Origin: Longimicrobiales bacterium
GTDB lineage: Bacteria; Gemmatimonadota; Gemmatimonadetes; Longimicrobiales; Gaopeijiaceae
Assembly (NCBI GenBank): GCA_965219445.1
Contig: CBDCNQ010000004.1
Span: 96,001-160,000 of the forward strand
Direction of reading: 5' to 3'
DNA: 64,000 nucleotides
The translations under genes and the position numbers were made by a program. This document shows, piece by piece, positions 14,404 to 18,985 of this stretch (the first letter of the stretch is position 1; each line of letters begins with the position of its first letter). The notes beneath the pieces are model-generated. The model saw only the letters and a list, made by a program, of their open reading frames with translations, ran no database searches and had not been told where the DNA came from.

Positions 14404-15010
14404 GGGTTGCGTCCTTTCGTTTCAATGCCCGCGAGCGCTTGCAGTGCCCTCGAGGTGGTGGAGGTGATGACGATGCATCGACGTAGCTGAATTGCCAAGA
14501 GCGAGCAGGTGGAGCTTCCTTACCCACCATGGCGTGCCTCACGATTTTCGTGATATCGACCCTTGACAGCGAAGCAAAGGCTCGCTTTCCCGTCTTCTTG
14601 CGTGCCGGGGTACCCCCGGTGAGCTTGCCCAATCCCTCAACTGACCATCGAAGGGACACTCGAATGATTCCGGTTTTCCTTCTTAGCAAGGAGATCACAC
14701 CATGACGAGCAAAGCCAGAATTCTGGTGACTGGAGCGACCGGGAATACCGGAGGTGCGGTCGCGCGTCAGCTCCTTCATGAGGGCCACCCCGTGAACGCC
14801 CTCGTGCGGAGGCAGGATCATAGGGCGGACGCGCTCGCCAAGGGAGCTAGGATCAAAGGCATCATAGGGGCATGGCGACCGCTACCGGTACCGATCAGCA
14901 GCGAAGCAGCCCGAAGACGAAGAGGCGTTCTCCTCCGGGAACGGGTGCGCGTTCATCATTATTCGCGCAAGCAAGCAACCCAACCCGTCCTATCCAAGAG
15001 GAGAACGCCC

Positions 15011-16066
15011 ATGGAGAGATATATCGGACTCGACGCACACGCGTCGAGCTGCACGCTGGGGATTGTAGGCCCCAGCGGCAAGCGCTTGGGCTCGCAGGTG
15101 GTGGAGACGAACGCGCGGGCGCTGATCGAGGTGCTGCGAGGGATTCCGAGGAACCGGCACTTATGCCTGGAAGAAGGGACGCTGTCGGGGTGGCTGTACG
15201 AGGTGCTGGAGCCGCACGTGGAGGAGCTGACGGTGGCGGGGGTCGGCAAGAGCCGGGGCCCGAAGACCGACAAGCTGGACGCGTTTGCCCTGGCGGAGAA
15301 GCTGCGGATCGGATCACTGGAGACGAGGGTCTACAAGAACCGGGGCCAGTTCAGGCGGCTGGGGGAACGGGCGAAGAGCTACGACTTCCTGGTCGGCGAC
15401 ACGGTGCGGGTGAAGAACCGGCTCAAGAGCGTGCTGCGCTCGAGAGGAGTGGCCTACGGCGCGGGGCGCTCGGTCTACTTAAAGCGCGACCGGGAGGAGT
15501 GGTTGGCCAAGCTGCCGGAAGCGAGCAGGACGACGGCCGGGTTGCTGTACGAGGAGCACGACGCACTCGTGGCATTGAGGGCGAAGGCCGAGAAGGCGTT
15601 GCTGGCGGAAGCACGCAAGCATCGAGAGTGGCATGTGCTGAAGACGTGCCCGGGTCTGGGTCCGATCCGGACGGCGGAGCTCCTGCCGGTGGTGGTGACG
15701 CCGTACCGGTTCCAGAGCCGGAGCAGGTTCTGGGCGTACTGCGGACTGGGCGTCGTGATGCGGAGCTCGTCGGACTGGGTGCGGGGTCCGGGTGGGCGGT
15801 GGGTAAGGGAACCGGTACAGCAGACGCGGGGGCTGAATCGGAACTTCAACCACACGCTGAAGCGTGTGTTCAAGGGCGCGGCGACGACGGTGATCGGTCG
15901 GGCCGAAAACGAACCCTTGTACCGCCACTACGAGCGACTCCTGGAGGGGGGCACGAAGCCGAATCTGGCGAAGCTGACGATCGCGCGTCAGCTCGCCTCG
16001 ATCGTGCTAGCGGTGTGGCGCACGGGCGAAGCGTACGACCCCAAGAGACTGGAAGCGACGGAGTAA
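15011..16066 (+). CDS. IS110-family DEDD recombinase/transposase
   Basis: YIGLDAH, CLEEG and KTDKLDA (DEDD), CPGLGPI helix-hairpin, YCGLGVVMRSS serine region; AGGAGA RBS. Confidence 0.95.
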   Translation: MERYIGLDAHASSCTLGIVGPSGKRLGSQVVETNARALIEVLRGIPRNRHLCLEEGTLSGWLYEVLEPHVEELTVAGVGKSRGPKTDKLDAFALAEKLRIGSLETRVYKNRGQFRRLGERAKSYDFLVGDTVRVKNRLKSVLRSRGVAYGAGRSVYLKRDREEWLAKLPEASRTTAGLLYEEHDALVALRAKAEKALLAEARKHREWHVLKTCPGLGPIRTAELLPVVVTPYRFQSRSRFWAYCGLGVVMRSSSDWVRGPGGRWVREPVQQTRGLNRNFNHTLKRVFKGAATTVIGRAENEPLYRHYERLLEGGTKPNLAKLTIARQLASIVLAVWRTGEAYDPKRLEATE

Positions 16067-16432
16067 ACCGGCCTGGGATCGGCGAGCGTGGGGTCGAAAG
16101 CGGTCACAACATGGGGTCCGACGAAACGGAAGCGAACCGGTTACAGGGGACAGCATCCATACACACCGTGGGCCGGGGCAGAGAGCCCAAGCCCCCACTC
16201 AAAGGCTATGCACCCCTGGAGAGCCGAACGAAGCGATGGGCCACAGAGTCCCAGATAGAAGGATGGTTCCCGCTCCAGAGCGGAGAACGCGACGGCTGTG
16301 AACGTCTTCCGGACTGCGATGCGGACCCTGCGAGCGCACCCCTCCCCACCCTGAGTCGTCGACCGGGCAATCCAAACCATGCGGACGCCGACGGTCAAAA
16401 AATGAGCCGACGGCGCGTGGGGAAGGTGCGTC
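16067..16432 (+). ncRNA. Putative bridge/seekRNA in the IS110 right non-coding end (boundaries approximate)
   Basis: TACACACC (16160-16167) and TCAAAGG (16199-16205) match the two target strands and lie in a stem-bounded internal loop. ATAGAAGG (16255-16262) matches the element's own junction. Confidence 0.75.
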
Positions 16433-16455
16433 TTGACCGCCAGCCCCATAGAAGG
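16433..16455 (+). promoter_or_regulatory. -35 half of the IS110 circle-junction promoter
   Basis: TTGACC at 16433-16438 sits 17 bp before CATCAT (14860-14865) when the ends are joined through one AAGG core. Confidence 0.7.
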
Positions 16456-16551
16456 GTGTGTAAAAAAAGAGGCGACGTACCTTTCCGCTAGGTAGTAAGA
16501 AGTTAACCAGCGAATCCCGGGTGAGCGCCCGGGGGAAAGGAACGATGCCTC

Positions 16552-17797
16552 GTGAGGAAGAATATGGTGGGACCCGAGAGTGAGTCCAGCACGCCGACGT
16601 GGGAGTGCTTGGAAGCGCTGGTTCGTGAGAAGGCCCAGGAGATGGTCCAGCGGATTCTGGAGGAGGAAGTGACGGAGTTGCTCGGCCGGGAGAAGTCGGA
16701 GCGGAAGACGGTCGTAGACCCGGCGCCAGGCTACCGCAACGGCTACGGCAAGGCTCGGCGGCTGGCGATGAGCTCGGGCACGATCATGCTCCGACGGCCC
16801 CGGGTTCGAGGCATTGAGGAGCGGTTCGAGAGTCGGGTGTTGCCGTTGTTCGCACGACGGACGAAGGAGGTGGGTGCTCTGCTTCCGGAGCTGTATCTGC
16901 ACGGGCTGGCGGAGGGAGACTTCGAGCTGGCGATGCGGGGCCTGCTGGGCGAGGGGGCCCCGTTGTCGAAGTCTTCGATTCGGAGACTGCGGGCGGGATG
17001 GACGGCGGAGTTCGAGGAATGGAGCCAGCGTCGCCTGGAGGGCCGTGAGGTCGTCTACGTATGGGCGGACGGGATCTACGTGAAGGCAGGGCTCGAGCGG
17101 GACAAGGCAGCGCTGCTGGTGGTTCTCGGTGCGATGCGAGACGGGACGAAGGAGGTGTTGGCCCTGAGATCGGGCTACCGAGAGTCGGTCGAGTCCTGCT
17201 CCGAGGTGTTGCGGGATCTGAAGGCACGCGGCATCGAGGCGCCCCGGCTTCTGATGGCGGACGGCAACGCGGCGATCTGGGGCGCAGTACGGGCAGGTAT
17301 GGCCTGAGGCGGGCGAGCAACGGTGCTGGAACCACAAGATGAGGAACGTGCTGGACCGGCTGCCGCAGCGGGAGCAGAGCGAGGCGAAGGATCTTCTCAG
17401 GACCGTGGTCTACGCACCGAGGCGGTCCGAGGCGCTGAAGGCCCGTGAGGCGTTCGCCAGGCGCTACAGACCGTGGTATCCGAAGGCGGTGGATGTACTC
17501 GAGGACGACTGGGAGCGGATGGTGGCGTTCTACGACTTCCCCGAGGATCACTGGAAGCATCTACGCACGACGAACGTGGTCGAGAGCCCGTTCGCTGCGC
17601 TACGGCTCAGGACGACGGCGGCGAAGCGATTCAAGCGGGTCGAGAGCGCTACGGCGCTGATCTGGAAGTTGCTCTTGGTGGCCGAGAAGCGGTTCCGAAG
17701 GCTCGACGCTCCTCACCTCCTCAAGGACGTGTTTGAAGGAAGGAAGTTCGAAGACGGAAAGCCCGTCTCAACCCAACAGCGGAAGAATGCCGCCTGA
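16552..17797 (+). pseudogene. IS256-family transposase with a +1 frameshift
   Basis: GYRNGYGK, YVWADGIY, LMADGN, QRCWNHKMRN, LRTTNVVES. Removing one G from GGG at 17291-17293 restores AVRQVWPEAGEQRCWNHK. Confidence 0.9.
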
Positions 17798-18985
17798 TAC
17801 GTTTACACACCTATTGACCCAACCTCCGCCAAGGCGGGGGCCAAGGTAATCGTGGGGGACCTCCTCGAGCCCGAGGACCTCCGGCACGCCATGACAGACG
17901 CGCAGAGGGCCTACTACATGGCGCCATGGGCTCCAAACCAACTTCACGGGGCGATGAACTTCGCCGTGGCCGCGGCGGATTCCCGCTTGGAAGTGGTGGT
18001 CGCCATCACGCAGTGGCTGGCGCAACCGCAGCACCCGTCCGTCGCCACGCGGCAGAGCTATCTGACCGATCGAGTCCTCGACTGGATGCCGGGCGTCGAT
18101 TCGATCAGGGTGAATCCCGGATGGTTTGCGGACAACTACATGGCGGTGCTGGGCACCGTCGCGCAGCTCGGGATCTTCCCTTACGCGCTCGGCGAAGGAA
18201 AGGCCGCGCCGGTATCAAACGAGGACATCGCCCGCGTCGCGGTAGGGGCGTTGGTGAACCCCGGGCCCCACGTCGGCAAATACTACCGACCCAGCGGTCC
18301 CGAGCTCCTCGATCCCCATCAGCTCGCGGCGATCTTCGGCAAGGTGCTTGGGCGCTCCGTCACCTACCGGGACATGTCCCCTCGGATGTTCAACAAAGCA
18401 CTAAAGGTCGTGGGCATGAGCCCCGTGCTCATCAGTCAGCTCCAGCACTACCTGGAAGAGTATCGTCGCGGAGGCTTCGCTGCGGGGGCGCCCAACGATG
18501 TGGTTCAGCGCGTCGGCGGTTCCGCCCCCGAGGACTTCGAGACGATCACACGCCGGTACGTGGCGGCGAACCCCATGACCCGTCGTAGCTTGGCGAACAA
18601 GCTCCGCGCCATCGCGGAGTTCGCGAAGATCGTTCTGGCCCGGACACCGGACGTCTCTGCATACGAACAGAGGCAGAATCATCCCTTGCTAAGAGACCCG
18701 AAGTACGGCTTGGACTACGCGCCTTGGCGTAGATCACATGCCGTCCCGAACGCGTACGGGCTCGAGGGGGTTTTCAACCAGGGACACCTCCACCCGTCCG
18801 ACCAACGTACGTCCGGGATCCAGGACTCCATGGAGGCTGCTCAATGAAGATGGCTATGCATGCCCCTCCATCGATTGGAGGGCCGGGGGCGGACCGCGGC
18901 TGATCACCTTGCCCGGACAACGTCGACAGGTTCTGATGCTGAGAACCCTGGCCTTGGGCTTCATCCGAACAGCGAGGACGTAGCC

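Follow-up and report, generated by a model that had tools for sequence, protein, structure and literature searches.

An IS110-family element with a predicted IS1111-type guide RNA occupies the left ends of IS256-family elements in a Longimicrobiales genome

In the Longimicrobiales genome studied here, an IS110-family element sits at one fixed position within the left inverted repeat of IS256-family elements, and we consider it highly probable (roughly 0.9) that this IS1111-type bridge-RNA recombinase element finds the IS256 left end by base pairing. The proposed course of events is as follows. The element would circularise, and the circle junction would create a promoter, as the known behaviour of the family leads one to expect; RNA from the 3' non-coding region would then fold into two loops, a prediction supported by covariation. 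One loop would pair with both strands of the IS256 left repeat around an AG core, as the guide matches suggest, and the other would pair with the joined ends of the element. Finally, the recombinase would insert the element at the core after IS256 had already integrated. Such an insertion would part the terminal from the subterminal transposase-binding sites, probably lowering the mobility of the IS256 element, and the gain for the IS110 element would be a landing site that multiplies and is already disrupted.

The nested locus and the class of its elements

The window, by which we mean the whole 64,000-nt stretch of DNA analysed, contains an IS256-family element enclosed by an 8-bp duplication, CGCCAAGG, both copies of which (14836-14843 and 17827-17834) can be read directly (Table 1). 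The left repeat of this element is split by 1.6 kb of foreign DNA. Excision of 14860-16455 yields a 25-bp IS256 left end directly inside the duplication, as the initial annotation had claimed, and the 20/25 identity of this end with the reverse complement of the right end (17802-17826) was reproduced on recomputation. The two halves of the interrupted nmrA-like gene (14702-14843 and 17835-18847) join into one 384-codon frame with no internal stop. The proposed succession of nmrA-like gene, IS256 and IS110 is upheld by this rejoined frame, by the restored IS256 end and by the orthologous empty and filled sites described below; AAGG, originally read as the shared core, had to give way to AG once junction variation among relatives was considered. 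The transposase gene of the window IS256 is broken by a one-base insertion near 17291, which is absent from 15 identical copies of the major type. The 5' part of the nmrA-like gene, the IS256 stub, the IS110 left end and the recombinase gene (14702-16066) form one open frame of 454 codons, so that the promoter of the host gene could read through into the recombinase.

Table 1. Features of the nested locus, in window coordinates
Feature	Position	Strand	Basis
nmrA-like gene, 5' part, 47 codons, interrupted by IS256	14702..14843	+	Pfam NmrA E 8e-9; in frame with 17835-18847
IS256 target duplication, 8 bp, left copy	14836..14843	+	sequence; pairing
IS256 left inverted repeat, bp 1-13 (terminal part); its final bases serve as left IS110 target	14844..14856	+	stub before 23/24 copies; uninterrupted ends in relatives
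AG core, left copy, bp 14-15 of IS256 repeat	14857..14858	+	predicted from junction variation among relatives
IS110 left end, short; ribosome-binding site before 15011	14859..15010	+	sequence
-10-like hexamer of predicted circle-junction promoter	14860-14865	+	predicted
Imperfect subterminal repeat, IS110 left end	14864-14871	+	sequence
IS110-family DEDD recombinase, 351 aa	15011..16066	+	Pfam and invariant residues
Predicted target-binding loop of bridge/seek RNA	16145..16217	+	consensus fold with compensatory pairs; guide-flank covariation
Right-target guide	16159-16167	+	in target-binding loop
Left-target guide	16197-16204	+	in target-binding loop
Predicted donor-binding loop	16221..16269	+	consensus fold; match to the element's own ends
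Right-donor guide	about 16235-16238	+	in donor-binding loop
Left-donor guide	16254-16262	+	in donor-binding loop
IS110 right end including 3-bp extension	16433..16452	+	sequence
-35-like hexamer, IS110 right end	16433-16438	+	sequence
Subterminal repeat, IS110 right end	16443-16449	+	sequence
AG core, right copy	16453..16454	+	predicted
IS256 left inverted repeat, subterminal part with TGTAAA; right IS110 target	16455..16464	+	copies; family motif in the available part of PMC7780238
IS256-family transposase, frameshifted near 17291; major haplotype an intact 410-aa frame	16552..17797	+	Pfam; haplotypes
IS256 right inverted repeat, intact	17802..17826	+	sequence
IS256 target duplication, right copy	17827..17834	+	sequence
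nmrA-like gene, 3' part	17835..18847	+	Pfam; frame

Both transposases belong to the families to which they had been assigned. The recombinase matches PF01548 (39.3 bits) and PF02371 (32.5 bits) above their cut-offs and the NCBIfam IS110 model NF033542 with an E value of 2e-32 at 112.8 bits, below the curated cut-off of 140. Residues D8, E55, D87, D90, S252 and S253 are invariant in 16/16 aligned relatives, and the serine motif, RSS(S/A)D, has the two invariant serines with no glycine after them, in contrast to the SG of the IS110 family. No solved structure matched the recombinase by sequence, and all of its plasmid relatives are <28% identical. Membership in the IS110 family also agrees with the short shared core and the lack of terminal inverted repeats and of a true target duplication, empty sites having one core and filled sites two. 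The host transposase is of the Mutator-type DDE class (PF00872; its 5' piece scores 158 bits against NF033543, with a cut-off of 150), and the imperfect repeats of about 25 bp, the TGTAAA motif and the 8-bp duplication (family range 8-9 bp) are those of an IS256-family element. An IS110 relative with 40% identity is present in 15 copies in G005 (C1), several of them clustered within 40 kb.

The non-coding DNA of the IS110 element comprises 152 bp on the left and about 390 bp on the right, downstream of the transposase gene, which is the IS1111 layout. Outside the subterminal repeats lie 7 bp on the left (14857-14863) and 3 bp on the right (16450-16452), fitting the IS1111 rule of 7 bp and 3 bp given in the available part of PMC11187229; the top-strand guide (16159) is located 5' of the bottom-strand guide (16197), which is the order that the same source describes for IS1111 seekRNAs. 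Subterminal repeats of IS1111 grade (11-13 bp, near perfect) are absent: those of the window element are about 7 bp long with one unpaired base, fall outside the 25 longest inverted repeats and are somewhat longer in some relatives. We therefore call the element IS1111-type by its layout, not a proven member of IS1111, and the recombinase trees contained only the clade of the window element, with no ISfinder IS1111 members. Joining of the ends would bring the -35-like and -10-like hexamers to a 17-nt spacing, where they may form a circle-junction promoter; a promoter scan found none, as expected with the hexamers at opposite ends of the element. Four contig runs, none fully covering the unique flanks of the window, listed no circle joint (back-joint), and contigs of the RNA runs X17 and X18 covered only IS256 relatives, not the IS110 element.

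Filled and empty left ends and the mobility of the host element

A left-end probe gave 25 hits in the genome of the window (G000), 24 of them at least 98% identical and the 25th a 58-nt remnant of a relative. The IS256 stub precedes 23 of the 24 near-identical left ends, the exception being C2:336727; the unrelated flanks that would have spoken against targeting are thus not the rule. Twenty-one of the 24 complete IS110 right ends run directly into the inner IS256 end and one reaches it across a group II intron, the remaining two being those of the off-target copy and of a partial tandem duplication. Since IS256 left ends are filled in 23/28 cases and right ends in 0/29, the initial proposal that the element specialises on IS256 ends stands if it is read as left ends. 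The filled IS256 elements are about 79-100% identical to that of the window, and divergence down to about 79% requires several separate insertions. All five empty left ends in G000 differ within the guide-matched bases, leaving no perfect site empty, a statement that every perfect site is filled being true only for G000 and G042. The off-target copy at C2:336727, outside IS256, matches the left guide at 8/8 and the right guide at 5/7 positions; a fit to the left guide where there is no IS256 suggests recognition by RNA and not tethering to IS256 protein.

Three of the empty left ends (C4:199262, C4:1221680 and C5:267938) show a single-base addition, change or loss next to the core. The odd bases resemble the IS110 right end, and each of these ends is without its own duplication partner. 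Excision scars and escape alleles were both considered; polishing with reads from filled copies, however, would give the same bases. Elsewhere in G000, a group II intron of 1.9 kb, whose reverse-transcriptase frame is 508 aa long (C4:1169769-1171666, minus strand), lies in an IS256 left end three bases beyond the IS110 site, making a triple nesting. The intron was dismissed as a second specialist of IS256 ends, as 1/13 of its copies is found there and the other 12 are elsewhere in the genome. Partial tandem duplications, in which the IS110 right end is joined at AG within the element's own recombinase gene, occur once in G000 (C5:1612738) and twice in G043 (see also L039:3910-4826).

Relatives provide the uninterrupted state. 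Left ends exactly equal to the reconstruction are present in G044 (44), G041 (5) and G007 (1), which disposes of the concern that uninterrupted copies might have a different left end; uninterrupted loose ends at 16452 were also found in contigs of runs X1 (4 records) and X5 (6 records). Two loci display the order of IS256 first and IS110 second through orthologous empty sites: G006 is empty where G007 is filled, within 191 bp of identical flank, and G007 is empty, at a site one base off consensus, where G000 is filled (C5:1030810), within 1216 bp of flank at 99.4% identity. The same insertion recurs in G007 (5 copies and one remnant), G042 (5), G043 (2), G044 (1) and G259 (1), as well as in the metagenome locus L128. 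Near-identical elements occur in Longimicrobiales (Gemmatimonadota) records, and the junction pattern is present in 4/301 genomes of the order, two of the four apparently being G042 and G043 (equal coordinates). Perfect target 14-mers number 46 in G044, 7 in G041, 5 in G007 and 1 in G259; that G044 has 46 of them yet a single filled site indicates that a perfect target is insufficient for quick filling. In G042, 10/10 uninterrupted left ends are without the AG core (AT in 8, TA in 2; L208-L216), those of the TA type resembling the IS256 right end, and these core variants may be escape alleles of the host element. The five filled sites of G042 all have the same uncommon base directly behind the core, which is missing from every empty site in that genome; either saturation plus escape or a moving composite would produce such a pattern.

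The target duplications of G000 are partly reshuffled. Among its 28 left ends, 9 pair with their own right end, 11 with that of another copy and 8 with none, the swaps including a reciprocal pair (C2:416881/C2:467815) and two three-way cycles across contigs, each cycle with one odd empty junction. In G042, 4/5 filled copies have kept their own duplication. Such swaps could have arisen by recombination between the 3-kb repeats, through the recombinase itself or from errors of assembly. The copies are also mosaic, with 189/300 site pairs failing the four-gamete test. Swapped partners and mosaic copies are what one would expect if a single ancestral insertion had been spread by recombination, gene conversion or assembly errors, with no sequence-specific targeting, but this explanation is highly improbable: the guides match the site and covary across the family, the filled IS256 variants reach down to 79% identity, the insertion occurs in seven genomes or contigs, and L128, with a 69%-identical recombinase, is inserted at the same base. 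L128 and the guide match between them largely refute it.

The insertion has a suggestive position with respect to host transposition. According to the available part of PMC7780238, IS256-family repeats are bipartite, bp 1-12 being bound by the catalytic and HTH domains and bp 14-25, with TGTAAA, by the N-terminal domain. The IS110 insertion separates these two parts of the left repeat and spares the tip, and probably lowers the mobility of the IS256 element. A competing explanation, which we regard as possible though unlikely, accepts that targeting is real but derives many filled copies from transposition of an IS256::IS110 composite by way of the intact right end and a 13-15-bp left tip, with transposase acting in cis or in trans, so that IS110 hitchhikes and does not immobilise. 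The boundary position with its spared tip would permit this, as would the intact IS256 frames of many filled copies and the finding that an ISCth4 junction without the subterminal left part (14 bp of repeat) was integrated in vitro, albeit more slowly; against it, an ISCth4 figure-eight mimic with a short left end gave no product (both in the same part of PMC7780238). The G042 copies point both ways: the odd junction base shared by 5/5 filled sites and found in no empty one, and the 0-3 differences between IS110 copies in 4/5 of them, agree with composite movement, whereas filled and empty IS256 bodies are intermingled there. Among the 23 copies of G000 there are 22 IS110 haplotypes: twelve filled IS256 elements of identical sequence each have a different one, and the only two IS110 copies that are identical lie in different IS256 variants. 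This favours separate insertions, although recombination among the mosaic copies blurs the signal. The two loci filled in place also speak for insertion into resident IS256 elements. Of the early claim that the element specialises on IS256 ends and thereby immobilises its host, the first half is retained on the 23/28 left ends, and the second is not, because the short ISCth4 junction integrates and the haplotypes are compatible with composite movement.

The predicted guide RNA and its targets across the clade

Three stretches of the 3' non-coding region correspond to target or donor sequence: 16159-16167 is the reverse complement of the right target, 16197-16204 repeats the left target together with the core, and 16254-16262 repeats the element's own right end. 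An alignment of 38 relatives gave two stems with large internal loops, with compensatory changes in 13/31 pairs, and this consensus fold places both target guides in the first loop and the donor guides in the second. The fold rests on the alignment, because the window RNA folded by itself does no better than shuffles (z -0.85); Rfam had no match in 14500-18200.

A recombinase was present at 162 loci, of which 100 had readable guides. For the covariation analysis one row was kept per distinct guide, and four rows with mis-called left ends were dropped. Left guides match their own flanks at 90/110 bases (shuffled mean 44, reached by 0/10000 shuffles) and right guides, scored as the best of three registers in the shuffles as well, at 150/182 (shuffled 94, 0/3000); the rows being related, these shuffle fractions are not to be taken as probabilities. 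Target-guide columns vary at 1.3-1.6 bits, compared with about 0.4 for donor guides and stems, and a donor-base change is mirrored in the guide in L118 and L049. At the left junction the base preceding AG tracks the target and the base following it the donor, while at the right junction the assignments are exchanged. From this pattern we infer that crossover takes place at AG, which corresponds to bp 14-15 of the IS256 repeat. Elements differ by as many as two bases in the spacing from core to right-guide match (registers 8, 9 and 10). The predicted two-loop RNA, guides that spell both target and donor, and covariation across about 100 relatives all point to the IS1111-type RNA guidance that had been suggested at the outset.

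Recognition might instead reside in protein contact with the DNA or with bound IS256 transposase, the RNA matches being secondary. The site is protein-bound, probably bent DNA, and left ends are hit while right ends, alike at 20/25 positions, are spared. The right end, however, differs inside the left-guide window, and recombinases that are nearly the same but have different guides go to different sites; the sibling L043, 95% identical and altered in its left guide, lies behind a right-end stub, its right flank not being IS256. These observations make site choice by protein very unlikely and agree with guidance by RNA.

Most members of the family are directed elsewhere: of 79 loci whose flank could be read, 49 agree with a loose GGATAG|GAAATYCAA motif. 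This motif lies 205 nt after the IS91-type transposase of a Thiodictyon plasmid, and a variant lies 215 nt after ISCR1, ending at the oriIS position of PMC6218425, the available part of which locates a 232-bp oriIS region; it was not found after the ISVsa3 element, the third record examined. IS91-type transposase sequence is present in 13 loci (3 of them queries), downstream and pointing at the IS110 element in 11/13, and in 2/17 of the ancestral-guide loci having at least 1.5 kb downstream. The ancestral and commonest target of the family is probably the oriIS end of IS91/ISCR elements; with few loci containing an IS91-type transposase, this assignment is probable, not sure, and weaker than that of IS256. 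Remnants and copies of an oriIS-type relative lie beside the IS256-type element in G000 (C2:661601) and G044 (L219-L221).

IS256-end guides occur in the window clade and in L126 and L128, whose recombinase is 69% identical; both groups lie nested among oriIS-type elements. A single clade of the six IS256-guide rows was rejected (p-AU 2.9e-6) in a test on 26/76 proteins with a simpler model and a quick tree, which omitted L061, L071 and further rows that were long or frameshifted. On this phylogenetic comparison, IS256-end guides are judged to have been acquired repeatedly in the clade. Between L128 and the window element, 3/15 guide and 29/155 scaffold positions differ, and between L128 and its neighbour L129, 10/15 and 18/155, respectively; between IS256-guide lineages and their oriIS-targeting neighbours in general, 9-12/15 guide positions differ but only 12-22/155 scaffold positions. 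A more distant element, L144 (61%), has guides of an unrelated kind and occupies, in the opposite orientation, the left repeat of a distinct IS256 element (PF00872). L126, L128 and L144 are single metagenome contigs. L126 combines IS256 guides with an oriIS-type flank, a mismatch which suggests that recombination between elements occurs and could move guides.

On a broader reading, the clade would specialise in parasitising transposon ends, its guides would change as one block instead of through scattered point mutation, and its hosts may escape by changing the core. Taken as a whole this reading is distinctly doubtful, as are the routes it proposes for block rewriting, in which the guides would be templated by the target or short guide segments would be exchanged. 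The guides and flanks of L122 (see also L118) correspond to a short repeat family dispersed in G000, at C1:29199 and some 14 further positions, which suggests that the L122 lineage was retargeted to a REP-like repeat.

Relation to known systems and significance

Partridge and Hall are said to have described in 2003 that IS4321 and IS5075, of the IS1111 group, insert in the terminal inverted repeat of the Tn21 family. The window element resembles them in that an IS110-family element enters the terminal inverted repeat of a different transposable element at one set position, and differs in that its target is the IS256-family left repeat, not a Tn21-family repeat.

Judging from the available parts of PMC11187229 for the seekRNA of ISEc11, ISKpn4 and ISPa11, and of PMC11208160 and PMC13626964 for the bridge RNA of IS621, the window element shares with these systems a DEDD recombinase, a long 3' non-coding region, two guides to opposite target strands in IS1111 order, a 2-nt core, the 7+3 bp arrangement and a junction promoter, here a predicted one; its AG core is the reverse complement of the CT core of IS621. 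It departs from the seekRNA systems in its subterminal repeats, which are about 7 bp with a bulge instead of 11-13, and in having SSS in place of SG. Four signature peptides of its recombinase, which is a distant one, are all absent from the curated transposase file of PMC11187229, and in the accessible portion of Supplementary Table 1 of PMC11208160 the clade is represented only by rows without an ISfinder name. ISEc21, of the IS110 group, likewise targets a conserved sequence of another IS family, and its relative ISMch6 exemplifies a natural change of guide and target (both in the available part of PMC11187229). ISEc21, however, addresses codons of IS3 transposase genes with an RNA located upstream, whereas the window element hits an end repeat and separate lineages of its clade have had both guides replaced entirely.

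As for the host, ISCth4 and the IS256 family, as presented in the available part of PMC7780238, have the same Mutator-type transposase, 8-bp duplications, subterminal TGTAAA and bipartite repeats. The difference is that 23/28 left ends are interrupted here, and that part of PMC7780238 mentions no IS110 insertion. Copy-out rather than cut-out is argued in the available part of 10.1101/2025.10.25.684509. IS256 as a target of IS110 was not found in the literature searched, ISfinder and most subscription papers lying outside it; the term had no match in the main texts of PMC11187229, PMC11208160, PMC13604230 and 10.1101/2025.10.25.684509, nor in the readable supplements of PMC11187229 and PMC11208160. 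The case is well supported as one of a known mechanism (IS1111-type seekRNA or bridge RNA) and a known habit of targeting ends; on the literature searched, the IS256 left end is a new target for it.

The locus and its relatives make up an unusually well-documented instance of natural bridge-RNA targeting, with 23 filled sites in one genome and empty controls in relatives, and the family allows guide and target to be read side by side. End-targeting is extended from Tn21 repeats to IS256 repeats and, probably, IS91-type origins within one recombinase clade, going beyond a single example through copy-level evidence and what appears to be repeated switching between the ends of different host elements. 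This range of ends makes it testable how the guides of IS110 elements change target in nature and whether the insertions restrain their hosts or ride on them. The clade, with its AG core and variable right-guide register, also constitutes a pool of candidate programmable recombinases. If block rewriting of guides were true, it would represent a natural route of bridge-RNA reprogramming, and an IS-versus-IS arms race would be readable from sequence.
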